Assembly (NCBI RefSeq): GCF_036588685.1
Contig: NC_086379.1
Location: forward strand, 23,994,001 to 24,058,000
Direction: 5' to 3'
DNA length: 64,000 nucleotides
Source: Mytilus trossulus
Lineage: Eukaryota
This document shows positions 1 to 63,779 of this stretch, piece by piece. Below the pieces are notes generated by a model. That model was not told the origin of the DNA, made no database searches, and saw only the letters and a program-made list of their open reading frames with translations. Position 1 is the stretch's first letter; each line of letters starts with the position of its first letter. Position numbers and translations under genes: made by a program.

Positions 1-270
1 TTGTAAATTATAGCAGACTATTACTTCAACAATGATCAATGTTACAGCTATGATGATAGATATCAAGTTCTTCAGTGTACGAATGTTCTTTCTAACACAG
101 GGTATTCATAGTCAACATTAACAAGTTTTATCAATTTTAAAGGGGCCATAGACAGACGAATTGTTCATTTTCATTCTTCAAATCAGTGAATAAATTAAGT
201 ATAAAACCAAGACAAAATACACATGATTTCCAATATTCCTATGACTCAAATTCGACATATCATTTTCTGT

Positions 271-1137
271 TCATGTGGAAGTTAAATCGCAATTTAGATT
301 ACTGCATTTAACGGGGTTGTTACACAAATTCTCATAACAACAGTATCTACACATAGCACCCCATCTTTCTCTATATCCGGTTGTTGGTGATCTCTGCCAA
401 GTGCTGCATCCCTTTTCACAGCCATCATAGTGTCCGCTATCTCTTTCACATCCCACATATGCTTTTGGAATAGACGAAGGTAACACTTTTCCTATTGAGA
501 TTCGACAACGTTGCCCTATTGGACATGTAACCCGAGTTAAGTTCGGTTCTTTAATGTACTCACTATTTTCGAATCTGTAGAAGCCCTCGTTTCTATGGAA
601 ACATTCTAGTTGTTTGTTTGATGTCGTATACACTGATAGCCAGTCTGACATTGTCCAAGTCCCAATATTGTAACTTGACGTAAGACTGTCAAAAAGTTTC
701 AAGGTATGCCGTTCATAGAATTCGTTTGACAGAAAACAAGTAGAATCACATGTTGTTGTTTTATTGTTACATCCGGTTGAGGAACCACTCCAGCAGGTGT
801 CAGTTTCTAGACGAAGTTGCGCAGAGGCACAAATATGAGATCCATTGTATGCAAATGTAATTTTTTGTGTATTTGAACGAGATACACTAACACTGACCAC
901 ATATGATGAAATATTTCCTCCAAACGTAACCCCTGGTACCATGCTGGGAGCTTTACTGTACGGAACGCCATTTGTTACACTGCTATACAGATGTTCGATA
1001 TTTAGTTTTACAGAAGGTAGCGAAATTTCCGTTGTATCATCAACAGTTGCATTGCACTCAATCTGTGGCACATCTGCTGTGGCAGAATAAACAGCAAACA
1101 AAGTTACCAGGACAAGCTTACATAATATTGTATCCAT
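271..1137 (-). CDS. Intronless signal-peptide protein (288 aa) with unrecognised Cys-rich N-domain and C-terminal Ly6/uPAR three-finger domain (copy A)
   Basis: The ORF track starts at GTG 1203, but ATG 1137 begins a signal peptide (MDTILCKLVLVTLFAVYSATA). The C-terminus has LU-type Cys spacing LECF...C-x5-C...GC...C..GC...CRYCCYENLCN. Several N-glycosylation sequons (NAT, NIS, NGS, NKT, NLT). TATA box upstream. The frame stays open for 30 codons past the TGA at 271-273. Confidence 0.8.
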   Translation of the reverse strand: MDTILCKLVLVTLFAVYSATADVPQIECNATVDDTTEISLPSVKLNIEHLYSSVTNGVPYSKAPSMVPGVTFGGNISSYVVSVSVSRSNTQKITFAYNGSHICASAQLRLETDTCWSGSSTGCNNKTTTCDSTCFLSNEFYERHTLKLFDSLTSSYNIGTWTMSDWLSVYTTSNKQLECFHRNEGFYRFENSEYIKEPNLTRVTCPIGQRCRISIGKVLPSSIPKAYVGCERDSGHYDGCEKGCSTWQRSPTTGYRERWGAMCRYCCYENLCNNPVKCSNLNCDLTST

Positions 1138-1282
1138 CGTATTTAACTTTTTGTAAGATTTTAGTTTTCTTTTTCTGAAATTAGAAAAATATGTTTTAAA
1201 CACGAAAAGAACTACTAGTATTACGATTGTAGCAAAATCAGATTAACACGAAATCCTTTTACAACTTAAAAAAATTAACGGC

Positions 1283-3117: not shown

Positions 3118-3930
3118 CATTAAAAAACCCAAGGAACAACACACTTTATCAGAACAATTTTCTTGGATATATAGCAGTTTGACAAACACTTATCTAAGAA
3201 TTGAGAAGCAAGTTATTTCTTTAACAATAGAACGTGATTCAAGCATTCAGCTGATTTTACAGAATTATCTCCCTGTAGTATAATGTACCACATTATTATA
3301 CGTAAAATAACGGGTTTATTATTTTTCGAAGAATCAAATAAGCACTTAAGTGTAATCACGTGAACATTTTATTGAGATAAATATATCAAAGGAAAATCAG
3401 TGATTCTTCTGTGCATTAAGATTTGTTAATGTCGATCATCTAAAAGTTAAGAATCTTTTTGAGTGGTAGATCACCAGTGGTAGATTTCGTCAACATATTT
3501 GAATTCTTATTTTAAATTATGAAATATGTTGTACGTTTACATAATTTTTTGAATAACTGTTTGTTTAAAGCACCTAGGAAAAGATTTGACGTGTTTTAGT
3601 ACTTATTTGTGAAAATACTCTTCTGTTGAATTATCTTTATATCTTTTGTTTTATGGAGGGGGGATGTTAGGATGAAATTTGAAAAAAAAACAAGCAGGAC
3701 AGGACCTTTGAGCAGGACGAGACACTGCAAAACAAAAAGGGAGGATGACAATGACAATGTTTGTAAAGAATGAACTAATTAAAAAGGGAGGGACCGACTA
3801 CAGTTAAAACTTTAAAAAAGGACAGAGATTACAACTAAAAACATGATCTATTCATAGTCCATTATAAGGATAATTACCATAGATATACGAACTGTTCAAT
3901 TATATTCTTTAAATTGGTATAAAACGGTAA

Positions 3931-4842
3931 CTACAACAAAAGCACATGATTTCCAATATTCCTACGACCCAAATTCGAAGTAAGATAGCAATCTAAATTA
4001 CTGCATATCTTGGGGTTGTTACACAAATTCTCATTGCAACAGTATTTACACATTAGAGCCCATCTTATTCTAATTCCAACTGGTGATATCTGCCAGGTAC
4101 TGCATTCCCCATGTTCTTGTCCACACCATTCATAGTGTCCGCTATCGCGTTCACATCCTACATAATGCTTTTTGGAAGGACGAAGGGAGATATTTTCCTA
4201 GTGTGATTCGACAACGTTGTTCTATTGGACATGGACCGCGAGTTAAGTTCCGTTCTGTAAGGTACTGATTATTTTCGAACCTGTAGAAGCACTCGTCTCT
4301 ATGGAAACATTCTAGTTGTTTGTTTAATGTGGTATACACTGATAGCTAGTTTTACATTGTACAAGTACCAATACTATAACTTGACGTAAGACTGTCAAAA
4401 AGTGTCAAGGTATGCCGTTCATAGAATTCGTTTGACAGAAAACAAGTAGAATCACATGTTGTTGTTTTATTGTTACATCCGGTTGAGGAACTACTCCAGC
4501 AGGTATCAGTTTCTAGACGAAGTTGCGCAGAGGCACAAATATGAGATCCATTATATGCAAATGTAATTTTTTGTGTATTTGAACGAGATACACTAACACT
4601 GACCACATATGATGAAATATTTCCTCCAAACGTAACCCCTGGTACCATGCTGGGAGCTTTACTGTATGGAACGCCATTTGTTACACTGCTATACAGATGT
4701 TCGATATTTAGTTTTACAGAAGGTAGCGAAGCTTCCGTTGTTTCATCAACGGTTGCATTGCACTCAATCTGTGGCACATCTGCTGTGCCAGAATAAAAAG
4801 CATACAAAGTTACCAGGACAAGCGTACAAAAAAATTATCCAT
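3931..4842 (-). pseudogene. Chimeric pseudogene of the Ly6-domain gene (copy B)
   Basis: -1 frameshift in a T-run just after ATG 4842; TAA and TAG stops at ~4346-4354; +1 frameshift near 4170 shared with copy C. The 5' half matches A and the 3' half matches C. Confidence 0.9.
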
Positions 4843-7736: not shown

Positions 7737-8687
7737 TCATAGATATACGAACTGTTCAATTATATTCTTTAAATTGGTATAAAACGGTAACCACAACAAA
7801 AGCACATGATTTCCAATATTCCTACGACCCAAATTCGAAGTAAGATAGCAATCTAAATTACTGCATATCTTGGGGTTGTTACACAAGTTCTCATTGCAAC
7901 AGTATTTACACATTAGAGCCCATCTTATTCTAATTCCAACTGGTGATGTCTGCCAGGTACTGCATTCCCCATGTTCTTGTTCACACTCATCATAGTGTCC
8001 GCTATCGCTTTCACATCCTACATAATGCTTTTTGGAAGGACGAAAGGAGATATTTTCCTAGTGTGATTCGACAACGTTGTTCTATTGGACATGGACCGCG
8101 AGTTAAGTTCCGTTCTGTAAGGTACTGATTATTTTCGAACCTGTAGAAGCACTCGTCTCTATGGAAACATTCTAGTTGTTTGTTTAATGTGGTATACACT
8201 GATAGCCAGTTTGACATTGTCCAAGTATCAATACTATAACTTGACATTAAACTATCAAAGAGATTAATAGTATGTCGTTTATAGTATTCGTTTGACAGAA
8301 AACAGGTAGAGTCACATATTGTCTTATTGTAACATCCAGTTGAGGAACGATACCAGCAGGTATCAGTTTCCAAACGATGTTGCGCAGTAGTACAAATATG
8401 TGATCCATTGTATGCAATTGCAATGTTTTGTCTATATGATCGCGACACAGTAACACTGACAGCATATGATGAAATACTTCCTACAAACGTAACCCCTGAT
8501 AAATGTTTGGGAGCACTACTGTTGTTACAATGTGGAACAGATGTTCGATACTCAATATAACAGAAGGTAGCGAAGTTTACGTTGTTTTATCAAATGTAGC
8601 ATTGCATTCAATCTGTTGCATATCTGATGTGGCCAAAAATACAGCAAACGAAGTAAAAAGGACAAAATTATAAAGAATTGCATCCAT
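7737..8687 (-). pseudogene. Diverged pseudogene paralog of the Ly6-domain gene (copy C)
   Basis: ATG 8687 gives MDAILYNFVLFTSFAVFLATSDMQQIECNAT; GAA>TAA at 8577-8579; deletion near 8520-8540; frameshift near 8030; CKYCCNENLCNN retained. Confidence 0.9.
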
Positions 8688-14614: not shown

Positions 14615-15389
14615 TTGCAACAATTAAATCGTTCCGTTCGTAAAATAATCGTTACGGTAGCAAATCATATGATTTCCTTACCGAATATATGGTGTAACTG
14701 TATTAGTACAGGTTCGTTATTGTCAGGAACTCTAAAGTGCATAAAACAAAAACAGAGGAATTTATAAAATCTGAATTATCAGTAAACAAAATGTGTTTCG
14801 ATAAATGCATGCCTGCTGGCTTTCTTATCACTCGCACACATATTCCTAGACTTGTCTAACACAGCACCATCTATAATCAAGAGGGATAATATTAACCAAT
14901 TGAATGAAAGAAATGAACCAATCAAAACATCATATGAGGGTATATACAGTATACTTATTCATTATTAACTGCGTTTAGTAACTGATAAGGGTTATAATTG
15001 TGGGATTTTATGCCATTATTCATAGAAAACACATCATTAAACCTTTGTAAGCTTTCACTCTACGATTAATACTTTGAAGAATACTTTACACCCAGATGTT
15101 TATTTCCAAGTTTTTTTTAATTACATTTCTTACCATTGAAAATCATATCCATTCCGGTGATATTAAACTTATTGCCAGGTAAACGGTAGATAAGTGGCAT
15201 CCAATTATTTACGTTCTAGTAGATAAGCTACCAATCAGACATCATCTAGATATGAATACACCTTTTCACCAGGGATTGTTTATATAATAAATGCTTATAC
15301 TTTACAAATAAGCATACAGATAGATGATTTATAGTCAAGACGGGATTATCTTTTAATGAAATTTTTTGGATTGAACTCTACAAAAAAAA

Positions 15390-16295
15390 ATGCTGCGAGC
15401 TACCGTATTTCTCATAGTTATCTCTTGTGATCTGCTTTTACACATATTTTGTCTTGTCATGTTTTCTAAATCATCAAAATTACGAACTTCGAGATTTCAC
15501 AAGTTGGTTCTAAATTTGAGCATAAGTGACACCCTTTTTCTTACCGAAATGATCATTCTTAACAGATTGAATTCGTCCGTTTCTAGATTTGACGAACCAT
15601 TTAGCTATGCGTGTCTTTCTTTAACAGACGTAACATCAGGGACATATATGTTCTCCCTATATCAATGTTTCCTAGTGTGCTTGGAGCGACTCAATGCAAC
15701 ATTTTATACAGAACGGCAAAGTGTAAGAAGACTAACGTCTAATATAGGAATTATTTGTGGATGCAGTGCTTGTCATCTAGTTTCAATTCTCCAAATTGTA
15801 ATTGATGTTTTGCGCTTCAATACACATGCCACGTGGTGCGATACTGGTACAACAACTGACTTCGTTGATTTTATCGTGCGCGTGCCTGTAGGAATACTGT
15901 GTACGCTGATCGTCGTAATCTATACGATAACACTGATCAGGATCTACAAGAAACAAGACAACAACCATGCGCATACAAATGAAAACATATTCAATTTAGC
16001 AAATACAACTAAAAAAGCTTTCAAAACAGTAGGTTTAGTTGTTTTAATTACACTTACAGCTAATGTTCCCAGCTGTTTTGTTGGCATTTATTCTGTATTC
16101 ATCGGACAAAGTGAAGACACCATAAGATGGTTATATTACTGTAATACTTTGATTTTACTAAACCCATTGTTGGATCCATTCATATACGTATTTTGCATTA
16201 AAGATTTTCGTGACCAGATCAACAAGATATTGTGTAGAAGAAACGCTATTCAACCATTGAACAACCCTTACGCTATGGAGATGGCAGAGGGCTAA
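15390..16295 (+). CDS. Single-exon rhodopsin-class (class A) orphan GPCR, copy 1
   Basis: 301 aa with seven hydrophobic segments; TM2 NLSISD, TM3 CLERL (DRY-like), TM6 KKAFKTV..P, TM7 NPLLDPFIY, helix 8 KDFR. Confidence 0.92.
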   Translation: MLRATVFLIVISCDLLLHIFCLVMFSKSSKLRTSRFHKLVLNLSISDTLFLTEMIILNRLNSSVSRFDEPFSYACLSLTDVTSGTYMFSLYQCFLVCLERLNATFYTERQSVRRLTSNIGIICGCSACHLVSILQIVIDVLRFNTHATWCDTGTTTDFVDFIVRVPVGILCTLIVVIYTITLIRIYKKQDNNHAHTNENIFNLANTTKKAFKTVGLVVLITLTANVPSCFVGIYSVFIGQSEDTIRWLYYCNTLILLNPLLDPFIYVFCIKDFRDQINKILCRRNAIQPLNNPYAMEMAEG

Positions 16296-17088: not shown

Positions 17089-17439
17089 GATGCTGATAAG
17101 TGACGAGCTATTGTATTGATAGGTGTCATAATACAAACATTACGCAATATAATGTAAAATTATAATAATACTTATCACTTTTAAAAGGATATTTCTATAT
17201 CTGTATTGATCAAAACCTTCAATATTTAGCATGCCCAAATGTGTATATAATTAATTTACGTTCCTTAACAGTTCTGTATACTTCGTTTGAGTTACTCGTA
17301 TATATTTGTTTTCGATAACATGTAAGTCAATCAATGTGGTGTTACTTTTATCTATAACAAAGGGGTAGTTATATTTTCGCGTGTATTTTCAGCGAAAAGT
17401 ATACTCAGTGAAAATTTAACATTCCCATTTTGTTCTTAC

Positions 17440-18180
17440 ACTAAATAATTCAAAATTTGGTGACTATGTGGAGCACATCTATCCCATCGAACTAGAGATA
17501 AAGGATACTACATATACAGTTAAGTCGCCTTCATATCTTGACTTACATTTAGAAATTGACAATCAGGGTCGGTTGAAAACAAAACTTTACGACAAAAGAG
17601 ATGATTTCAGCTTTCCAATTGTGAACTTTCCATTTCTAAGTAACAACATTCCAGCAGCACCTTCATACGGGGTATATATCTCCCAATTGATACGATATTC
17701 ATGTGCTTGCTTTTCCTATCATAATTTTCTTGATAGAGGTTTGCTGCTCACAAGGAAGCTATTAAATCAAGAGTTCCAAATGGTGAAGTTGAAATCATCC
17801 CTTTGTAAATTTTACGGACGCCATCACGAGTTGGTTGACCGTTATGGAATAACCGTTTCACAAATGATATCGGATATGTTCCTAACGTCGTAACTACATT
17901 CCCCTTCCCTGTCATGAATGTTACCTACCGAATTAGACTATTTACCGGCTTTGTAATCACATAAGCAACACGATGGGTGCCACATATGGAGCAGGATCTG
18001 CTTACCCTTCCGGAGAACCTGAGATCAACCCTAGTTTTTGGTGGGGTTTGTGTTGTTTATTCTATGTTGTGTCATGTGTACTATTGTTTGTTTGTCTTTT
18101 TCATTTTTAGCCATGGCGTTGTCAGTTTGTGTAAGATTTATGAGTTTGAATGTCCCTTTGGTATCTATCGTCCCTCTTTT
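17440..18180 (+). mobile_element. 5'-truncated Penelope-like retroelement (RT thumb/C-terminus plus 3' UTR); no C-terminal GIY-YIG, consistent with a Naiad-type architecture
   Basis: YLDLHLEID..KLYDKRDDFSFPIVNFPFLSNNIPAAPSYGVYISQLIRY; the ORF ends at 17893 without an endonuclease. The paralog at 47440-47611 is cut by a deletion; another fragment at 57950-58075. Confidence 0.85.
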
Positions 18181-27300: not shown

Positions 27301-30300
27301 GGAAAATTTCTTGAACAAAAAACGTTATTGAAAAGTTTACAAAAGAACAGGTTTCAATAAAGTTTTGACAAAAAGAATATAAACGTTCATCATATCATCA
27401 CAATCAGTGAATTTATTTATTTTATTTCATTTGTTGATGCACCAATCAAGTTGTTTCCATAGTATGAGTCATTCCAACATTACCTCGGGAGTTCTGACAT
27501 TAGTTTTATTTTAAATATTCCAATGAAGTGTTCTTTGTAAGTCTATTCTATAAAAAAAATCTCATAGACACGGTTTGGATTTTTTAATGACGAGGGCATA
27601 TCCTCGTTGATTCTTAAATTCAAGTTTTAAAGATTATTTAGTCTTTTTTTTTGTATGTTGAGTAGCAACTTTTTTTGATATCATCTTATAATCCATCATT
27701 CCAGTTTAATACATTTAACTTAGTTTCATTACAATGGCATTGGCCGTAAGTTTAATTATTGCTACTAGAGGTCGGTCATTTAAAGACATATCAGCTGTAT
27801 CATAAACGTTGGCGTATACGCATCTGCAGATATACATACATAAAGAACAGTATATGATGCCGGGCTTAAGTTTATTCATACTTTAAATCATGCAGATGGG
27901 CAACTGAATAATTTCTAATTATAATATTGTTGATAGCTGACTTATTTGTTGGAAAAAAATTCCATGAATCTGTATGCTTCAATTTCATATAATTTAAATG
28001 TGGTTATCGACATTTTTGTACATGGGAAGAAGGATATGAAAAGCATGCACTAACGATGTGTTCAAATGTACACGTATAACACATATCACATTGTCAGGAA
28101 AAAATGCATATTGTGGATGCTGATGACCTGTAGAAACTCAACACACGAAATTCGAAAACTGCTTTTCTTCTTATTTGAATAACAAAATTTTACTAAAATG
28201 TTCTGTCAATTTGTTCTCTTAACATTTGCCAACACCTCACTTGAACTCATCAGTTACTCATTCTACAGCGGTCGTATTAATAATGTAAGAGAGGATCAGA
28301 CCTTTAAATATATTTTTCTCCAACAGTCAATGACCAAACGACCAGGCAAAAATACAGTCGAAGGATCAAAACCAAAAATGAAATGAATTCCAAGTACAAA
28401 CATACAGATGTCAATGAGTTATATGAGATGTAGCATTGAAAGATTGCTTACGAACCATAAACCCTGATCTCATTATCATACAACTGATAAGGTTTTTTGA
28501 CATGAGAAACAGAAAAATCGATGCACTTTTAGATAACGAGGAAAACTATACCATGTATTAAAATCAGCTCTACTTCTGTGTACACTTTCCGTATTTTGTT
28601 TACCAACAAGAAAAGTAAAAAACGAATTTAAATAGCAATAAATTGTTTACTGTCTTCTTGAACTGTCATCCCATATATCTGCTGGCAGTCACCTGTAAAC
28701 TTCAGAAGATAGAATGGTTTGTCCAGCGGCAAAAAGACTTTATTTGCATTAGAACCATCATTTCTGAAAGTATATAGTATAACTGCAATGTTTGACCTTC
28801 ATTTTTTATCTTTTGCGAACTAAAGGTGAATGGAGGTAAAGTGAACTGCCCAAAGTAATGATCGATTCATTTGATTTCAAGTAATTTGATTAAGAGCCAT
28901 TCTCTGTTAGCATCAAAATTTCTGATATAGGGTGGGAAAGTCAGGACCTCAAATTTCAATGAAACTTGGTAGGTAATACTCATATGTCACCCTTGTTTGA
29001 AATTTGGTATAATATTGATACACAGAGTTGCGGTTGCCATGGTTACCATACATCATCAAATAAGGCTTCTTACAGAGTCTTTCAATCAGTGAAATTACCA
29101 TTTTCTTTGCATATAAAACATAAAGCAAACTGTTCTGAGGTCATATTCTTTATTTGTCATCATGAAGACAATGAACTAAGCATATAATATCAGTATATAA
29201 CATAATAAAAAAAACCTTGATTTTGACTTTTTGGGGATTTTTCAAAAATTGGATTTTTTACCAATTTTAATAAGAGACTGTGAAAAATGCACCGACAGAT
29301 GTTCTTAAAATAATGCATATATAATGTTTAAAGCATAAAGTCCAAAATATCAAAAAATTGGAGTAGTGTTATTTCTCAAAAAAAAAAAATTCGTTGCCAT
29401 GGCAGTGATTTAAATATCTAAAAAAAAAAAAAAAAAAAAAATTTGCAAATTTTAAGTTAAAAATGAAGAAAATTTAGTTCAATTGGATCTGATTATCAAT
29501 TTAACTCTATTTGAAAAGATAAATGTCAATTTAAGATTGTGGCTACCATAGTAACCATTTATATGACTCTAAGCAAAAAAAACTTTGAAATAATATACTA
29601 CAGAGTTGCACTGGTGCTAAAACACTATGCAAATAAAACACAATTCAATGTCTGTCTATGATTGGAAATATCATAGGAAATCCAAATCTCACTATTAGCT
29701 TATAAAAGCAAGAACAAAATGTTGTCAACCGTCCACAGATGCTCGTATGCTCCATGCACACTATCATTTTCTATGTTTAGTTGACTGTGAAATTGGGAAA
29801 AAAAATCTAATTTGGCATTTAGACATATTAAATTAGAAAGATCATATCTTAGGGAACATGTGTACTAAGTTTCAAGTTGATTGGAGTTCAATTTCATCAA
29901 AAACTACCTTGACCAAAATCTTTTACCAAAAACTTATAACGGAAACTCTTACCATCATTGTCTATGTTCAATGGACCGTGAGTTTGATGTTTCATTTGGT
30001 ATTTTTATTGGAAAAACAAATTGTTTTATAGCAATTTCACTTTAAGCTATTTAAATTTGTCATTTTGAAGCCTTTTGTAGCTGATAATGCAGTATGGGCT
30101 TTGCTCATTGTTAAAGACTCTACAGTGACCTTTAGTGTCGTTTATAGGATTTGTATCATTGACAATCATACCATATTATAAGTGCATAAAATATTTGTAG
30201 TTTTTTACATAAAGTTGGTAAAAGAAATTTAATTAAGTTCATCTGCAGTTAGTTCTCTCCTGATAGTTATAGTTTCTTCCCTTGATGCATCAACAGAATC

Positions 30301-33257
30301 ATCAAATGATTTGTTCTTCCTGCTCATTCTAGAAAAGAAACTTGTGATTTGTTGTACCGAAAGGATTTCGTCATATGAAAATCTTCTATTTCCATCTTCT
30401 TTTCTCTCAGTCAGCATTTCCTCTGATACCAAAAAAGGATCTTCCTTTCTGCAAGTTTTTAGACCTTTGTTAAACTTTTCAGTGAGATATTCTTTTTGGT
30501 TCACATTAAACCTTTTGTTCTTCCTTTCTTCTTTTAATGCCCAGCCAAGTTCTAAATCAGAGTTGTCATTAATTCCAACTGTCAGCCCTGCTGATGAAAC
30601 TTGAAAGTTGGTTGAAAAAGACTTAGATATCTTTGTAATGTAAGTCTTCTTAGTAATGTTATATCCATTACTAAACTGGCACCTGAATTCAAACTCACAC
30701 TTGCCGAACATTAAGTGGCTTGACAGGTCATGAAAAGATGAAAAAGACAGTGTGCATCCTTCATTTGCACATGTTATGGTGTTTTCTTCCTTTTCAGCTT
30801 TAAGCATGTTAAGTGGCAGTTGGCGAAAATCAACATCAATTTCTCCCTCTATCTCTGGACATGAGGTATTTAAAATACACTTTTCAACACTTGGAATATC
30901 AGATGAAGGTATTAGCTTTCCTAAAATGTAGAAAATAAAATTAAATAACTTATAATTTGAGAATACTGTTTAAACAATAATTGATTAATTGATTGATTGT
31001 TGCTGTTTTACACTCAGTGAAAATGAACTGGCTATATATTGTAGCTATTGACATGAAAAGTATGTTTGAAATGAATATAACTGAACTTTGAGTCTAGTGC
31101 TGGATATACATAATCCTTGGCTGCCACATCTAGTATGTGTCTATATAGTGTTAGTTGTTTTTGCTTTGTTGTGATCAATCTGACAAGTTAGAACTGTGTT
31201 TATAGTTTGTTCCGATGTTGTACTGTTATTCCACTGTCCCATGTTAGGGAGTAAATTAAATAGTGCCAAAAAAAACTTATTTGAATCTTAAACCTGCTTA
31301 CCTACATGAAGGAAACGGTTTGCAGGAAGTCATAAATAATTTTTGGACACTATATTCTGACTTGGAGCAAACTAAAAAATTTGTGACAAATTTTTCAACA
31401 TAATCGCAAAAAATAATACTTGAATCACATATATCAAGTTATGGTCTATTGACTGCTTACAGATATCAATAGAAAATCAGTGTTTGGAGATCTTAATCAT
31501 GATTAGGAATTATAAAAAGAAAGGATAAGAAAATAGAAAATTAACAAGCATTCTAAGAGTACTGCAAAGACTCTGATGGGCATTGCTCATCATTGAAGGC
31601 CATATAGTGACCTATAACTGTTAATTTATGTGTCATTTGGTCTCTTTATGGATAGTTGTGTCATTGGCTATCATACCACATTTTCTATTTTCATATTCAT
31701 GTTGCGGGGAATTATAAAAATAATATTTATCTTTTTACCTGTGCCAACTTGGTATGCCTTCCATGCAGTAATGCCATGTGCGCTAAATGTGAAGTTACTA
31801 TAGGTTGATATTGCAGGTATAGCAGTGTACTTAGTTTTCCTACACTCAGTTCCTTCTATGACACGAACTATGTACTTCACATTTTTTGCTGACTTGTCTA
31901 TTGCCTGTAAATAAAGTGAAATTATTGTAAATGCTTATAAGAAGAAAAATAACTAGAGTAGATTAGAACTGTTGGCTTTTTTGGTTGTAAACCTTTATTA
32001 AAATTATAAAAACCTGAAATCATAATAGATATAAAAACATAACAAAAAAGAGCTTACAATGAAGTATCTGGGGTTTTTTTCATTGTTTAAGGCCTTGCAG
32101 TGACCTATAATTGATAAATTCTATGTCATATGGTTTCCAGTGGAGATTGTTATCAGGCACAATTATACTAATCCTTGTTTTTATATTTATATAGAGTAAA
32201 AAAGTAACTTTAGCTGTCCTATAACTGGGTCTAATTCCTTCAGTTATTATATCCAAATTAGTTTTGTTGTTGCTCACTGGTTTCCACATGATTTTAATCT
32301 TTTTAAAGCTGCACTCATGCTATTCTAGATCATTTATAATAAACCTTGTTAATTGTTTTGCTTGGCACTGACATTGTTAGACTAATATATTATTGTGTGC
32401 ATTTGTTATTGCAATTTTTGAAGAATTAATGAAATTGTGAGATATATTACTGCCATATTTGGAAAAAGGTGCATACATATTTATGTTTAAAATATCAGAA
32501 TGAGAGTTCTTATTATTTCTATAATCAAGCAGTCTAACAATTCGAATTAATGACCATTAATAAAAACCTTGCAATAATTTCTGAATTTCAAAGTACATTT
32601 ACAGCTGTAACCTAGGGATGTTGAAGACATGAAACTGATTGGGTTTTAAAAAATATCTGTACCTTTTTCATTGATTGTGCTGTAAGTACATCATGACCCT
32701 GGTTTACATATCTTCTAATAGAAGATTTGATGGTTGCAGCAGTGCGGTCAAATGGTCCCTTCCCATTCTGGGATTCACAGAAGTCAAATGACAGGGTAAG
32801 ACCTGAATGGAATAAGAATGAAAGCATCTCTGTTGACTTGTAACAACCAGCATTGTCAGACCATACATGAAACTTTATGTCATTGGTGTTAATTTCTATA
32901 ATTTTATCCATTACATCTTGGATAATACTGGCTGTTACTTGGCTGTCCTGTTAAAAGAATGTAAACAAAATAAATCACAACTTTTAAACTGCTTTATAAA
33001 ATATCCATTTCCTAAGCATAATTGATCAACTACAACTAAAATTAGAGCACAGATACTAAATTGTTTTCAGAAGAAAGTGTCATATCAAGTATATGGATAG
33101 GTATTCAAACACAATTTTGTTTAGGGTAGTCATACATGTCATACATGTACATACACTATTTGATTAATGATACCAAAGGTTAACCCCAAGATGTTCATTT
33201 GTTTGTCTCTTATTCTTAGTGTATAAAAATGCATTATGAAAATGGATAATACATATC

Positions 33258-33412
33258 CAGAGGCGGATTTAGGGGGGGGGGGGCCGGGCCCCCCCTTTTT
33301 GGGAAAAAAATTGGTTGTTTATATAGGGAATCACTGAAGTGTGACTGAAGTGGGCCCCCTCTTAGGTCAGTCAGTGGACCCCCACTTATGAAAATTCCTG
33401 GATCCGCCACTG
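33258..33412. mobile_element. MITE with CAG(A/T)GGCGGAT TIRs and 5-bp TSD ATATC
   Basis: atatc|CAGAGGCGGATTTAG ... CTGGATCCGCCACTG|atatc, inside a Sola3 intron. Confidence 0.85.
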
Positions 33413-36400
33413 ATATCTCACAGCTACATCAGTGTACAGACCACATTTAATCTCACCAATGGCACAATTTAATTTATTAGCCAATGTCTTTACCTTATTT
33501 TCTTTATGTGATATTCTTACTCATTGTCATGGTATGGTTCCTCTTACACATTTTAAAAATATTTTACAAGTTGTCTGCTAGGCCTATTACACCATCTTCA
33601 ACTTGCTTTATTGTGGGCCATTCATATTTATTATAATTTAAACTATGTTATATGTTGAGATGTTGTCTCGTGTACGTTTACCCTCTATTCTTTCTTTGTT
33701 ATAGATGAATTTTGCAAGCAGGTTCCTACTTGCCCTACCATATATTGTTCAATATGTTATCTTTACAGTAAAAAACATTTATTTGTACATAAAAATTATA
33801 GCTTATTCATATAAAAAAATCTAACCTGGGATATTTGGGTTGCAAACAAATGAACAAACCCAAGGCTACCAATGCTTCCATCATCTTTCCTACAGAATGC
33901 TATAGATATGTGCCATGGTATTCCTCTCTTTCCGAACCAATCACATTGATCTTCACGAAACTTTCGGGGTAAAAACTTCATAGCCCAGTCACATACCAGT
34001 AAAACTTCACCTGAAGGCATGGTTTCAAAAAGATGAGTTTTTGCTAGGTCTTGGTTTTTGCATCTTATTATGTGCTTTTTCAGGCTGAAAATACTCTTTG
34101 TTGCTTGTTGTACCTAAAAATGAAGATCAATTCATAAAACATATTTTTATTAAGTTTTATTCTAAATTTAGGTATGACCTGCTAGGTAATATTTTGTTCT
34201 GATCTCTGATGTCAGTTTTCTAAAATGTATGCTTTTTCATTGGTCTTTTCTTAGGGGAATAATTAAAGCAGGGTAAATTTAAATATAAATTACAGACTTT
34301 CCTGTTGCAACTCAATTAGCCTAGTGACGATTCATTCACACTTAAAAATAGAATACTCTCTGATAAAACATATCCTGAATTAGTTAATTCTTTTTATTTA
34401 ATTCATAAGTTAATACAAATATAATCAAATATTAAACAGTTGCTCTTTCCTTCTAGTCCAGTACATATATTGTGTAATGGAAATTTTATGCAGAATGATA
34501 GCCAGCAAAATACCGGTAGGAAGATTGGTCATCAAGTAACAAATCGGAAAAAGATAGTATTGTATTTGGGAAACATATATATGGAGGAAATATTCAAAGA
34601 AACTAATAAGCTTGATTACATCCCATAGCAAGCTGAATTAACAGCAAGCAACAATAATAGATAAGGGTAATTAATTTCCTTGAACAATCATATGTAAATG
34701 TAATCAAACTTTTTTACATTTATAAGTGGTCATATAAATAATATAATAAGTTACCCTGAAATTGAGGTCATTCATCTCATCCTCTTTTCCATCTAATAAA
34801 GAAGTCACAAAGATCTTTTGTAATGCAGCAATGGTCTCTTTCAATTGTTCACAGCTTTCACAGACCATCTGGTGATTGTGAGAACATTGTTCTGTAAATG
34901 CCTCATCCTTTTCGTCACTGAGGGCATACAACATACAGTGATCTGCTACTTCTCTTCCCTTTGAAATATGAATCTGAAAATATTATAAATTAATGTGAAG
35001 GTATATAAAATAACATATGAACTACACTTGTTTCAATTTCATTGGCCTAATACTAGTGATTTGCAAATACATTTAAACTGGATCTCAAATATGCCATCGA
35101 TGCTGGAAATACAATGTAGCATACATATGAGTTGCTTTTTTATTATTTCTAGGCAAGACAAAAATCAAGGGATTATTTAATCTAAATGAAGTTTATGTAA
35201 TGGATGGATGCAAATCTTCATTAAAAAATTTATAATATTTTGGCACCCCAACGATTTTGAAACTGAAGAAATTCAAAAACCTAAAAACTAATGGCAATTT
35301 CTAATTTACCACATAAAATGGACTTAATTATCCTTTAAAAGTGTCCAAATTTAGTCTAACAAACCTTATAGTCAGTCCTTAAATACTGCTTTGATTGTAA
35401 GAACAGTGCCTGGAAACTTTTGTGGTCATCTGGTGATATAGCGTCGTAGGTCAGCAATTTGTCTAAGACATCTTGAAAGGTAATGAAGGCACGTCCTCCT
35501 TCTGCTACAAAATAGTCCAGTCCTTCAAGGCTTTTTCTGACTTTAGCACCACACTGGGCAAGTATTTTTAACATGGAACTGTCACCTATTTTATAAAAGT
35601 AACATTTAGTTTAGATTGATTGATTATTGTTTAAATGTCCAAGTAGCACAATTAGATTTGATCCATTTTATAATTCATTCATACCTTTTTTTCAATATTC
35701 AATATTATTAGTCAATATGTATTATACAAGGATAACCAATCCTTCATCTTTCATCTGATACTTTTTAAATATATTCTACACATAAATTTAAAATCATGTT
35801 ACCTATGCAAAGAAACTAATTGGTTTTAAATATGTGTTTCTTTCAAGTATGTGTTTTTTTCAACCGGTGCTAATTCAGGTGGTGTTGCATTTGACAAAGT
35901 CTATCAAAATTATTTTTGCATAGATTTCTAGCCAAGAAAGTGCTATTAGTCATCTTAAACCTGCTCCTTGTTGAAGGTGTCATTGTGACTTTGAGATGAA
36001 GAACAAATATTAAAATGCACTGTTCGTATGCTTTTTGTTTTTGTGTGTGTTTTTTTTTTAGATTTTGTGTCATGGTTAGACACCCCATATGATATCCTTT
36101 AATTTGTGTATTTTTCTATACATATATCTTTATTTTGCCTTACCTAAAAGTGAAATTTCATTTTCCTGACAGTATGCTTTGTACTGCTGTATTATGTCTG
36201 CTGAACCCATGCAACGTACAACGTTAGGTAAATTGTGGACTGTTCCATCTGAAAACTTCAGTTTTTTTCCCCCAAAAGGTAGATCACGGACAACATGACT
36301 GGATGTAATGAAATCTAAGAATGCGTCTAATCTTTCAGGATCTAATTTTGGTCGATGCAATTTTTTCTCAGGAATTGGAAGTGCTGGCCCAATTTTCTTT

Positions 36401-37107
36401 GAATGACTGAGAGCAGCATAGTAGGGATGAGATGTGACTTCTGGTAGTATGGTAGTAGAGACAGTAAGTCCTTGAAGGACATTCTTGAGGCAAGAACTGA
36501 AAGAACTTGTCTACCTTGTTGCCAGGATTCTGCTTTTCTGTATGAAGTGACAATATCTTTGTACTCTGTATGACTAGTTCTGTTTTCTTCATTTAACTGC
36601 TTGGGACATTTTATGTCATCAATTACTTCATCAACATCATTTGGAAATAATATTCCTATTATTAATTTCATAATCTCATCAAATCTTTCTTGGTAGGTAT
36701 TTCTTGTTTTAAATGTGTAGGACTGCCATGTTTTTCGTTCTTTTTCTTGAGAATTCCTGCAATCTGACTGATGACAGGAAATCATTCAAAGATGTCAAGA
36801 AGCTGCAACGTTCATAACTTCTGACTGATTGCTGCAAAGAAGTATAAAACTGATTACAATTAAATAAAGGAGGAATGGGCCAAAGGGTCATAGATGATTC
36901 CCCTGCTTGCATGTAACATTTTAAGGGACACAACTTGGTAAATAGTTGTCTTATTCACAACTTTACAACATTTCCTTTTTTTCATACATAAGCTTTTGTC
37001 AATGGAAACTCAATGAGAAATATACAAATCTATTTCAGATAATTGTAGTGGCAATAATATATTTTATCTTGCCTCCTATAGATTTATTGGGATATGATTG
37101 GTTAATG

Positions 37108-44335: not shown

Positions 44336-45389
44336 CTAAGTCTGTCATCAAGTAGCTTGACCACTACCTTGAGATTTCGTGTCCTATAAATATTCCACTT
44401 CAGCTAATTAATCAAAAACATCAGTTGTTGATTGTTCATGTTTGATAATGTTATATATACCTAAACGACAAAACAAAAACTAACTTGGACCCTTTAAGTA
44501 GGAAGTATTTGTACAGAAGCCTGAAATCATTTTTCTATGGACCGTAATTATCCGTAAATCATTGTGCTAGAACGGAGTAAACTGTAAAAGACTCTGAAAA
44601 ATATTCCTGATCCCCGGCAAACCGTGTTGCAACAAATAAATCGTACCTTTCGTAAAAAATCGTTACGGTAGCAAAAAATATGATTTCCTTACCAAATATA
44701 TGGTGTATCTGTATTAGTACAGGTTCGTTATTGTCAGGAACTCTAAAGTGCATAAAACAAAAACAGAGGAATTTATAAAATCTGAATAATCAGTTAACAA
44801 AATGTGTTTCGATAAATGCATGCATGCTGGCTTTCTTATCACTCACACACATATTGCTAGACTTGTCTAACACAGCACCATCTATAATCAAGAGGGATAA
44901 TATTGACCAATTGAATGAAAGAAATGAACCAATCAAAACATCATATGAGGGTACATACTTATTCATTATTAACTGCGTTTAGTAACTGATTAGGGTTATA
45001 ATTGTGAGTTTTTATGCCATTATTCATACAAAACACATCATTAAACCTTTGTAAGCTTTCACTCTACGAATAATATTTTGAAGAATACTTTACACTCAGA
45101 TGTTTATTTCCAATTTTTTTAATTACATTTCTGACCAATGAAAATCATATCCATTCCGGTGATATTAAACTTATTGCCAGGTAAACGGTAGAAAAGTGGC
45201 ATCTAATTATTTACGTTCTAGTAGATAAGCTACCAATCAAACATCTAGATATGAATACACCTTTTCACCAGGGATTGTTTATATAATAAATACTTATACT
45301 TTACAAATAAGCATACAGATAGATAATTTATAGTCAAGACGGGATTATCTTTTTATGATTTTTTTTGGATTGAACTTTGCAAAAAGAAA

Positions 45390-46295
45390 ATGCTGCGAGC
45401 TACCGTATTTCTCATAGTTATCTCTTGTGATCTGCTTTTACACATATTTTGTCTTGTCATGTTTGCTAAATCATCAAAATTACGAACTTCGAGATTTCAC
45501 AAGTTGGTTCTAAATTTGAGCATAAGTGACACCCTTTTTCTTACCGAAATTATCATTTTTAACAGATTGAATTCGTCCGTTTCTAGATTTGACGAACCAT
45601 TTAGCTATGCGTGTCTTTCTTTAACAGGCGTAACATCAGGGACATATATGTTCTCCCTATATCAATGTTTCCTAGTGTGCTTGGAGCGACTCAATGCAAC
45701 ATTTTGTACAGAACGGCAAAGTGTAAGAAGACTAACGTCTAATATAGGAATTATTTGTGGATGCATTGCTTGTCATCTAGTTACAATTCTCCAAATTGTA
45801 ATTGATGTTTTGCGCTTCAATACACATGCCACGTGGTGCGATATTGGTACAACAACTGACTTCGTTGATATAATCATGCGCGTGCCTGTAGGAATACTGT
45901 GTACGTTGATCGTCGTATTATATACGATAACATTGATCAGGATCTACAAGAAACAAGACAACAACCGTGCGCATACAAATGACAACATATTCAATTTAGC
46001 AAATACAACTAAAAAAGCTTTCAAAACAGTAGGTTTAGTTGTTTTAATTACACTTACAGCTAATGTTCCCAGCTGTTTTGTTGGCATTTATTCTGTATTC
46101 ATCGGACAAAGTGAAGACACCATAAAATGGTTATATTACTGTAATACTTTGATTTTACTAAACCCATTGTTGGATCCATTCATATACGTATTTTGCATTA
46201 AAGATTTTCGTGACCAAATCAACAAGATATTGTGTAGAAGAAACGCTATTCAACCATTGAACAATCCTTACGCTATGGAGATGGTAGAGGGCTAA
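45390..46295 (+). CDS. Single-exon rhodopsin-class orphan GPCR, copy 2
   Basis: 301 aa, same motifs as copy 1; 21 nt and 15 aa differences by manual count; no indels or stops. Confidence 0.92.
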   Translation: MLRATVFLIVISCDLLLHIFCLVMFAKSSKLRTSRFHKLVLNLSISDTLFLTEIIIFNRLNSSVSRFDEPFSYACLSLTGVTSGTYMFSLYQCFLVCLERLNATFCTERQSVRRLTSNIGIICGCIACHLVTILQIVIDVLRFNTHATWCDIGTTTDFVDIIMRVPVGILCTLIVVLYTITLIRIYKKQDNNRAHTNDNIFNLANTTKKAFKTVGLVVLITLTANVPSCFVGIYSVFIGQSEDTIKWLYYCNTLILLNPLLDPFIYVFCIKDFRDQINKILCRRNAIQPLNNPYAMEMVEG

Positions 46296-60651: not shown

Positions 60652-61567
60652 TTACGACTCTATACCTGTTCCTGTTGCATAACGAGCAACAGATGTATTT
60701 GGAAATAAGCATGGTTTTATTTCACTGTCACCTATTGTACAATCAAAAACATTTGAAACATGATAGCAATAATACATATTATCTTTGGAATGCTGTTCTA
60801 GCTGACATTCTTTAGAAGATACTAATTTTCCTACAAATACATAAGCCACAGTCTCATCTTGAAAATGTGGTGATCCGGTTGCTTCAAAGCATACTAAAGA
60901 TCCACTATCACCTTGTTCAAAAAAATTATTTGTGTCGCATACAATTTTATGAAGGTTTTGGTCGAATCTGTCGTTTTGATCCTTTCTTGATATCCAACCT
61001 TTATATGTACCTCTAGTTAAACCACTTTTTGCACCCCATTTGTATACTTTTAGACTTTTCATTCTTTCTGATTTGATAACTTGCGCTGCTATAATTTTTC
61101 CTTCAATGAATTCATCGGCTGTATTACGTAATCCCAACTGACAATGTTGGATAATGGATGGTTCTGCTTTAACAATTGATAGGTCAACATATTCAACCTT
61201 CGTCACGTCTGGTCCAGTATTCACTGCATGGATACTTTTTCCTATTACGATATTTTCGTTGCTATAAGCATCATCATCTTTTTTAATAACATGTTCACAT
61301 GTTGTGAAATAAATGTTTTCAGATTGGTCTTTCAAAAACAATCCAAGTGTTCCAAATTTTCCATCGGATCTGGCTACTCTGCTTCCTTGCTTTAAATTAT
61401 AGTTGGAAATATTGTTCCCATCATCCCAAACTTTAATCTGTATTTTTGAAATCTTTCCATGATAATATTTGTCCAGGAATAATTTTAAGTCAGCTTCCTG
61501 GTGCAATTCTTTTACATAAATGGAAATAACATCGTCGTCAAAGCCGAATGCTGATACGTCGTTTGTT
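60652..61567 (-). CDS. Terminal exon of a Nal1/Ssy5(S64)-like trypsin-fold serine protease
   Basis: Acceptor TTCTTATTAG at 61568-61577; open frame TNDVSAFGF..FGTLGLF..TTCEHV..VDLSIV..VYKWGAKSGLTRG..FEQGDSGSLV; His/Asp/Ser triad intact. The ORF-track start is an internal TTG. Confidence 0.8.
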
Positions 61568-63779
61568 CTAATAAGAAAATAGAAGACAATATTTTATTCA
61601 AATTATGTAGTACATGAATATCATCAATTTAAGTAAATAGTGAAACATTAACCTGCTTAAAGGAGGGACGGAAGATACCCGTCGTGTTGTTTATGAGATA
61701 ACAAATCCTGAATTTATGTAAATATTCTTTTATTTGTTCATCAAAAATTTAGCATCTACGATTGACTGAAATGTTTACAGATTAAATATAACCTTTTGAT
61801 AAACATGATAAATGTATAGTGTTTTTAAAGCAATGGACATTTGACTTGACTGTTAATTCGTTTATATTCATTAATTTACTCTAAAGCTACGATAAAAAAT
61901 TTAAACAAATGAAATTCTTATGCCATATAGCATAGGATTGACCTGTTCGGCTTTTTTTCCTGAGCAATTTCTAGTTTTATCACTTGCCAGTCTGTACTAT
62001 ACTTTTAAACATAATGTAGCTACAAATATACCAATAACGTGTTTAACATCAAGTACAAGGAGTTGACTGACAATTTCATCTATGCGACTTGTATTTATAT
62101 CATGCCTTGCCGCTCCTTTTTCGGTTTACAGTTTTGTAAATTTGTCAGTGTTTTGAAAAAAATGCAAACATTGTTAATAAAATGATCATGCGATGTACTC
62201 ATATAATGAGTCAACTGACAATGTATGATGTGCAAACCAATCTGTAGGGGTGTTTTTTTCTGATAATGTTTACTGTGATAATTTTTCTCCACCAGCTTTT
62301 TTCAATTTTTCTAAAATGCATAACAGGTAAAGATCGCCACTTCCAAGAAAAATAACCAATTAACGCTAAAAATCGACTGATCGACTGATAATGTTGTCGG
62401 TTTAACGAATTAGAAAATCCTAACTTGATAGTCATTCTTTTTATATAAAATTCATCTAGATTTATTATATTTTTAAAATAATAGACAAATAGAAATAAAA
62501 TACGAATTTGTCATTTAGGGTCAATAACTTATATAAGTTGACTAATTGTTTCGCCTTTAAAATAAATATTAATCTTTTCTTGTTTTTTTTGTATTAAAGT
62601 TTCTCTCCGACTGTTATAGTTTTTTAAGATAATTGAGAACCCGCACAAAAATGGTAAAAATCGTTATCTCCTATGAAGAACCAACTGACAATTTCCACTA
62701 TTTACTTTGTTTGTCGAGTAATGTCGTATCTTGCTGATTCGTTTTAGAATACAGAGTCTTGTGTATTAATAAGATAATAAGCAATATTCAAAAAAAAAAA
62801 GTAAAATAAAAGGAATCGTCTGATAATTTTTGCTAAATACACATGTTTGTAGAATTTAAATTTGCCTAAGTCATATTTTTGGAAATGTCTGTACCAAGTA
62901 TGGAATGCTATAATTGTTATTCACTCTTTTAATGGGCTTTTTATTTTGCCATTTAATTTGATACTTTCCGTTTTGAGGCAGGATTTTGGTGATTTTACTT
63001 TTTTCTACGTACTTTAACGGTTTGCAAAATACTTCAACTTAAAAAAAACTTGCATATGAATAAAATATTCTGCTTGGTCTTGGTATTGGTAACCATGCTG
63101 ATTTAATTAGCCCAGTAGTTCAGGAAGAGGATATTTATAAAAAGTTAACGGACCGCAACGGAATTTAACTATCTATATCTTTCACATTAGTTTAAATATT
63201 CTTAAAGGGTTTTTAAGGGTTACATTTTACCACAAGTGTGTCGATACACAAAATTTACAATACGTATTTCTCCTATTGATTCAAACCTGCGTACAAGGTA
63301 CGAATTCAGTACGAGGTAAAATGTTCCTTAGATTAATTTTCACGATTCAATTTTAAATACTAGAATATGGTACGCAACTGCACATTAAAAGACATTTATT
63401 TCTCAAAATATCGAATAAAGTTATAAAATCCCCGTAAATTGTTTACGAAATACAATCTTAATCTTGAATATTTTTCCATGATAGTGCATGTGGCAAAATC
63501 CTGGGAACTCTATTCAAAGGATTTGTAACATGTGACCTGGGTCTTTAAGTAGTAAATTGGAACTGAAGATTTTATCCAATGTACTGATAATCAGTCTTTG
63601 ATCTGACACTAATGTGTTCTTCAAATCTTCGATTGGCGAATATTTACAAATATGTTGGGAAATGTCTAAAATTTGGCAATTTGCGAAATTGGTAGATGAA
63701 ACTTCATTTATTTAATAGAATTATGACAAATACTAAAAGAAGCAGGTCAGATAATAAAATTAACGGTACCAATTTTCTT

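Follow-up and report, generated by a model that had tools for sequence, protein, structure and literature searches.

Those parts of PMC10421932 that deal with this question portray the loss of the anchor as relatively common and convergent among Ly6 proteins and, for the three-finger toxins (3FTx), favour a stop codon arising before the anchor as the route. The original prediction, which had pointed out that anchor loss accompanies the origin of secreted three-finger proteins, has a recorded precedent among Ly6 genes in the same parts of that study. The locus presented here, gene A of the mussel Mytilus trossulus, resembles the toxins as portrayed there in its three-finger domain, its duplicated cluster and the loss of a (predicted) anchor region. 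It differs from them in that the event appears young and stands beside its parent, in that two sister genes carrying this stop have already decayed to pseudogenes, and in the presence of an N-terminal beta domain of 150 aa that belongs to no known family. The product of gene A would be a two-domain protein of 288 aa, whereas the toxins are expressed in venom glands and secreted as a single LU domain of 60-74 aa with toxic activity.

With the GPI-anchored single-LU proteins GPIHBP1, CD59, LYPD6B and PSCA, the mussel protein shares the fold, the CC-x4-CN motif and, in its parent, a hydrophobic C-terminus. Unlike these, it has no sequence match in Pfam or the PDB, carries a long first loop and an extra Cys pair behind the domain, lacks the second Cys of LxCxxC, and is encoded in one frame instead of three exons. 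In programmed UGA readthrough of the UGA-CUAG class, a UGA is followed by an open and meaningful extension, as is the case here; in contrast to that class, however, the stop of gene A is unconserved, its context is UGA-ACA, and the extension is open because its first codon was formerly a sense codon. Molluscan architectures are covered in a 2026 Pfam-based survey of LU proteins from invertebrates (PMC13719153); Mytilus goes unmentioned in the accessible portions of its main text, and its supplements might list the proteins treated here. Our literature search, outside of which most subscription journals lie, returned nothing on a Mytilus Ly6/GPI gene or on the accessions of this family, and no paper on stop-codon readthrough into a GPI-anchor signal.

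From our point of view, gene A is best regarded as a recent tandem duplicate in which codon 289 changed from TTA (Leu) to TGA, so that a predicted GPI signal was lost and the product is likely secreted, a change that was likely tolerated and not selected; to this reading as a whole we assign a probability of about 0.6. As it stands, gene A exemplifies ordinary birth-and-death evolution within a tandem array, along a known route of Ly6 evolution.

Gene A, its tail and its predicted product

The window, i.e. the whole stretch of 64,000 nt that was analysed, holds gene A as an uninterrupted open reading frame of 288 aa on the minus strand (1137-274), closed by a TGA at 273-271. Behind this stop the frame runs on for exactly 30 open codons (TENDMSNLSHRNIGNHVYFVLVLYLIYSLI) to a second TGA at 180-178. 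The original prediction had described just this arrangement, and both its coordinates and its translation are correct. The features of gene A are the following:

1175..1190, minus strand: pyrimidine run and CAG ahead of the ATG, a putative splice acceptor
274..1137, minus strand: coding sequence of gene A, 288 aa in a single unbroken frame; an identical 288-aa protein is present in NCBI/UniRef
1075..1137, minus strand: predicted signal peptide, codons 1-21 (best 9-residue hydropathy 3.1; cleavage site placed by eye)
616..1056, minus strand: N-terminal all-beta domain, codons 28-174, according to the model of paralog D
319..609, minus strand: three-finger (LU) domain, codons 177-273, with ten Cys ending in CC-x4-CN
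271..273, minus strand: TGA stop as codon 289, where paralogs D and E read TTA (Leu)
178..270, minus strand: former coding tail, 30 codons plus the original TGA stop; predicted GPI signal
252-250, minus strand: omega candidate N296 in the tail (own heuristic only)
222-181, minus strand: hydrophobic run V306-I319 in the tail (own heuristic only)

Placed six codons after the last conserved Cys, the stop leaves the signal peptide, the N-terminal beta domain and the three-finger domain whole, and the product would be expected to enter the secretory path and to be released without an anchor signal. Contig depth in two runs guessed to be RNA drops to 0-4 at 1151-1250, upstream of the ATG, and given the putative acceptor in that region the coding sequence would sit in one exon. 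No splice joint was found in the assembled contigs between the stop and position 1 of the window. A stop without a downstream intron is expected to escape junction-dependent decay, and as no intron is seen behind the stop of gene A, such decay is not expected here.

GPI-anchored proteins are marked by a signal peptide, an omega site of small residues, a polar spacer and a terminal hydrophobic run, and the tail was scored with a GPI-like heuristic of our own. By this measure it fits a GPI signal, with the omega candidate N296-L-S, a spacer of ten residues and 14 hydrophobic residues up to the end. All seven full-tail Mytilus-type proteins that were scored pass, as does gene A read through with X; as a background, 71 of 8326 stop-to-stop segments in the window pass as well (71/1724 among segments of 20-45 codons). 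A hydrophobic C-terminal stretch is present in 16 and an omega candidate in 15 of 17 distant homologs, of which only five reach all strict cut-offs. The C-terminus of the parent type (paralogs D and E) is hydrophobic and lacks a cytosolic tail, and the tailed parent is predicted to be GPI-anchored.

The designation of gene A as a Ly6-domain gene finds no support in Pfam profiles and can be upheld on the predicted fold. No Pfam match exceeded the cut-off for gene A, and none of 15 family members gave one at E <= 1. Modelled alone from gene A, the LU domain adopts a three-finger fold (pLDDT 78). In a VIA comparison it aligned with GPIHBP1 (Z 8.9, rmsd 2.9, 81/83 residues) and CD59 (Z 7.6); three-finger domains filled the top 38 of 46 rows, with the next unrelated row at Z 2.3, and GPI-anchored regulators ranked above toxins. 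Foldseek likewise placed GPIHBP1 at the top (prob 1.00, E 2.9e-3). The Atlas neighbours at 0.85-0.89 include UPAR_LY6, QVR and Toxin_TOLIP clusters, which we take as a lead only. As defined in the relevant part of PMC4839075, LU domains have 8-10 Cys and a C-terminal CC-x4-CN. The mussel domain contains ten Cys from 179 to 272, with C266, C267, C272 and N273 invariant in 20/20 aligned rows, and two further conserved Cys (278, 283) follow beyond it. In the alignment the N-terminal LxCxxC motif is represented by LECFHR, which has the first Cys and not the second, and the extra Cys pair of the domain is located elsewhere (240/244/263). LxCxxC is not known to occur in all proteins with this fold.

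In the predicted structure of paralog D, a signal helix (5-16) precedes the all-beta domain (~28-174), which is followed by another beta domain and, at the end, by a helix; searched as a whole protein with Foldseek and VIA, this model returned nothing at E <= 0.001, and the lone match of a sequence-profile search against the PDB (E 1.1) was disregarded. The N-terminal domain (616-1056, minus strand) has long strands and the conserved motifs EH..S..NG.PY and YNG.H.C, and it found no Pfam, PDB or usable Atlas match. A kinship with secretin sheets was considered and dropped, as the VIA values (Z <= 6.9, rmsd 5.1) reflect long-strand similarity only. The homolog searches gave 13 to 16 matches each, all of them unnamed or uncharacterised, with Mytilus and one annelid as the named members, and a repeat search with an alignment added no further proteins.

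Paralog arrays and the origin of the stop

In the mussel's own genome, a search located the gene eight times on contig C7. The copies form two collinear arrays, one at 23.98-24.00 Mb with D, A, B and C and one at 13.80-13.82 Mb with E, F, G and H, and an intact copy with its tail opens each array. These two, D and E, encode 319 aa each, share 97-98% identity with A, read TTA (Leu) at codon 289 and correspond to uncharacterised RefSeq proteins of M. trossulus. The description of gene A as the only intact Ly6-domain gene therefore holds within the window and not beyond it, as D lies 12.8 kb outside it and is intact with its tail. Five of the genome matches cover codon 289, two with TTA (D, E) and three with TGA (A, F, H). 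F and H carry lesions upstream (a 17-nt and a 1-nt deletion, respectively), and neither frame reaches the tail; together with the broken copies B, C and G, five of the eight copies are dead. Two of these lie in the window:

3880..4842, minus strand: paralog B, a pseudogene with frameshifts at codons ~3 and ~226, internal stops and deletions in the tail
7737..8687, minus strand: paralog C, a pseudogene that stops after 36 codons and has a 13-nt deletion, a frameshift at ~226 and deletions in the tail

The original prediction had argued from B and C that the tail was once coding. The conclusion stands on other grounds, since the tail of gene A is identical to that of intact E (0/90 nt differ) and differs from that of intact D at 2/90 nt. 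B and C themselves are poor witnesses, because they lack 24 nt spanning the TGA codon, bear 1-nt and 7-nt deletions in their tails and are broken upstream too; paralog B stops directly after VLLL. B and G are mosaic: their N-terminal half matches A at ~90% identity and their 3' half is C-like, which points to unequal crossing-over or gene conversion within the array.

The arrays belong to a larger region that is present twice on the same contig, 10.2 Mb apart (23.844-24.022 Mb and 13.690-13.851 Mb). The two regions are collinear over ~178 kb at 88-99.5% identity, with many indels and no N gaps, and their upstream end was not reached. They may represent two haplotypes of a heterozygous animal or a segmental duplication. 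In M. galloprovincialis, massive hemizygosity and gene presence-absence variation are described in the portion of PMC7653742 consulted here. A 48-bp minisatellite of 22 copies lies between D and A (L015, 5967-7027) and recurs with the duplication units.

Regarding the direction of the change, codon 289 is Leu in 21 of the 24 members of the four nearest, Mytilus-type clusters, and the full tail is present in 20 of the 24. Named proteins with both Leu and the tail come from four species, M. galloprovincialis, M. edulis, M. coruscus and M. californianus. Among these 24, a protein that ends at 288 is known from gene A alone. A tree built from all eight copies sets those with TGA (A, F, H) apart from D, E and the outgroups at a bootstrap of 91%. 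The TGA is therefore the derived state, with a probable single origin in a duplicate. An alignment of orthologs had been proposed to see whether stop and tail are both conserved: the tail and its Leu are kept in the four other Mytilus species, the UGA is not. The stop thus represents a young TTA to TGA nonsense change in a duplicated copy and not a conserved recoding site. The reading preferred by the original prediction, a recent nonsense mutation by which a GPI-type tail was lost, is thereby supported. Gene A likely makes a secreted protein, with its intact sister D 13 kb away keeping the tail.

The same prediction had allowed that reads might reveal a sense codon and hence an assembly error, which is at odds with the TGA in three assembly copies and in contigs of five of six runs (X1, X2, X4, X5, X9; TTA in X4 and X13). 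These six, out of 24 listed sequencing runs, were all examined as assembled contigs, which may be copy mosaics and drop variants, and their RNA status is a guess; as contigs drop variants, the missing TTA in X1, X2, X5 and X9 and the missing TGA in X13 are not counted as evidence. The letters of codon 289 were observed directly in X2, X4, X9 and X13, and the TGA of X1 and X5 was deduced from the bridging contig, every differing letter of which could be accounted for. In X2 (guessed RNA) a single contig spans 1-744 with the TGA and without an indel, and in X4 (guessed RNA) a TGA contig with four other differences has a depth of 97 and a TTA contig one of 51, contig depth being a poor measure of expression. 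The TGA hence occurs in other animals and is not private, and this form is common and apparently transcribed with an open ectodomain. By comparison, letters 336, 668 and 670 of gene A were seen in none of four runs compared and could stem from errors of the assembly or from private alleles. These three letters speak for an error at the stop as well, and a selenocysteine codon would be the other way to explain the TGA away, but we give either hardly any credence, given the recurrence of the TGA just described, the Leu (not Cys) at the aligned homologous residue, and an Rfam search of 3.3 kb around gene A that found no SECIS and two matches at chance level.

Proposed readthrough of the UGA

Functional readthrough, by which gene A alone would yield a secreted as well as an anchored form, had been offered as the second reading of the open tail. 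UGA is the leakiest stop in the human-cell data excerpted from PMC10954755, in which leakiness by the +4 base follows C > U > A/G. The stop of gene A reads UGA-ACAGAA and thus departs from the permissive contexts UGA-C and UGA-CUAG, which agrees with the earlier remark that UGA-A is not the leakiest context, +4 A being among the least permissive in the same excerpt. The RNA behind the stop is less stable than mononucleotide shuffles (z +1.6, +1.3) and forms no stem-loop.

The state of the tail can be read in favour of readthrough. Across A, F and H the tail is unchanged (0/90), with 3.3 changes expected at the flank rate (P0 = 0.035), no TGA contig examined has a tail indel, and the diverged TGA contig of X4 has two tail changes, of which one is synonymous and one leads to the residue of intact D. 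At the coding-region rate, however, ~1.3 tail changes would be expected (P0 ~0.3, a hand calculation from pairwise counts). Moreover, F and H keep an unchanged tail although they cannot translate it, so that recency or gene conversion explains the identity. No ortholog conserves the stop, with Leu in D, E and the named proteins of four species, and since the neighbouring copy D, like E, already encodes the tailed form, readthrough is not needed to supply it. Taken together, the unconserved stop, the UGA-A context and the lack of structure make readthrough very unlikely.

Tolerance or selection of the truncated copy

According to the preferred reading of a tolerated nonsense change, a one-base step from TTA (Leu289) to TGA, six codons past the last conserved Cys, occurred in a tandem duplicate and removed the predicted GPI-anchor signal with the ectodomain frame left open. 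The mRNA would escape junction-dependent decay and give rise to a secreted two-domain protein, under relaxed selection on a duplicate whose anchored form is covered by intact D. That D still encodes the tailed form is why we consider the truncation tolerated rather than selected. The private coding changes of A are non-synonymous in three of four cases, one of them (N268Y) within the CC-x4-CN motif, which, along with the five dead copies out of eight, suggests decay. Pairwise dN/dS is 0.24-0.42 for the TGA copies and 0.23 for D-E, values which with 5-12 changes per pair are indistinguishable, so that relaxed selection is not evident from these counts.

Alternatively, the stop could have created a functional secreted form, such as a soluble decoy or ligand, that is selected beside its anchored parent, in a family that repeatedly spawns tail-less copies. 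The intact fold and the position of the stop shortly behind the last conserved Cys are in line with this, as is the spread of the TGA over 4/5 studies (3/4 once the best DNA holder is omitted as a possible source) and three organism codes. Word shares of 0.63-0.79 suggest, however, that these codes hold window-like alleles, so that conservation across species is not demonstrated by them. The B/C/G lineage lost its tail independently (24-nt and 1-nt deletions), and the M. edulis protein P0004 (CAG2199564.1) combines a tail of this type with an open ectodomain frame. A second M. edulis protein, P0021 (XP_071131004.1), has a frameshifted tail, and a distant member, P0035, ends after the LU domain. 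Yet B, C and G are all pseudogenes in this genome, as are F and H; P0004 has no annotated signal peptide and misses one Cys; P0021 is possibly an assembly error; P0035 derives from one contig of 985 nt and may be cut; and no second 288-aa form occurs among the 24 cluster members. We therefore regard selection for the secreted form as possible but unlikely. Doubtful in our opinion is the wider proposition that an undescribed lophotrochozoan family with beta domain, LU domain and GPI tail repeatedly yields secreted copies in mussels, of which the TGA copy would be a common, expressed, selected and newborn one. A further member from Logan, P0026, is frameshifted inside the LU domain.

Should the secreted copy be under selection, it would represent an anchored-to-secreted transition that still segregates at the population level, with a parent and a derivative that are directly comparable at 97-98% identity, and hence a living model of the step behind SLURPs and three-finger toxins. 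To our knowledge, this transition is known in vertebrate Ly6 genes only from old, fixed events. The family is in any case unannotated and invisible to Pfam, with an N-terminal domain without known fold.

Elsewhere in the window, open frames at 17420-17893 (plus strand) and 30229-36785 have no Pfam matches and resemble fragments of mobile elements, which we presume them to be. A frame of 313 codons at 60652-61593 (minus strand) gives a sub-threshold Nal1_C match (E 0.004) and possibly encodes a trypsin-like domain. Two near-identical single-frame ORFs at 15375-16295 and 45327-46295 (both plus strand) lie in a local duplication and resemble seven-helix receptors, the first of them giving no more than a sub-threshold 7tm_4 Pfam match.
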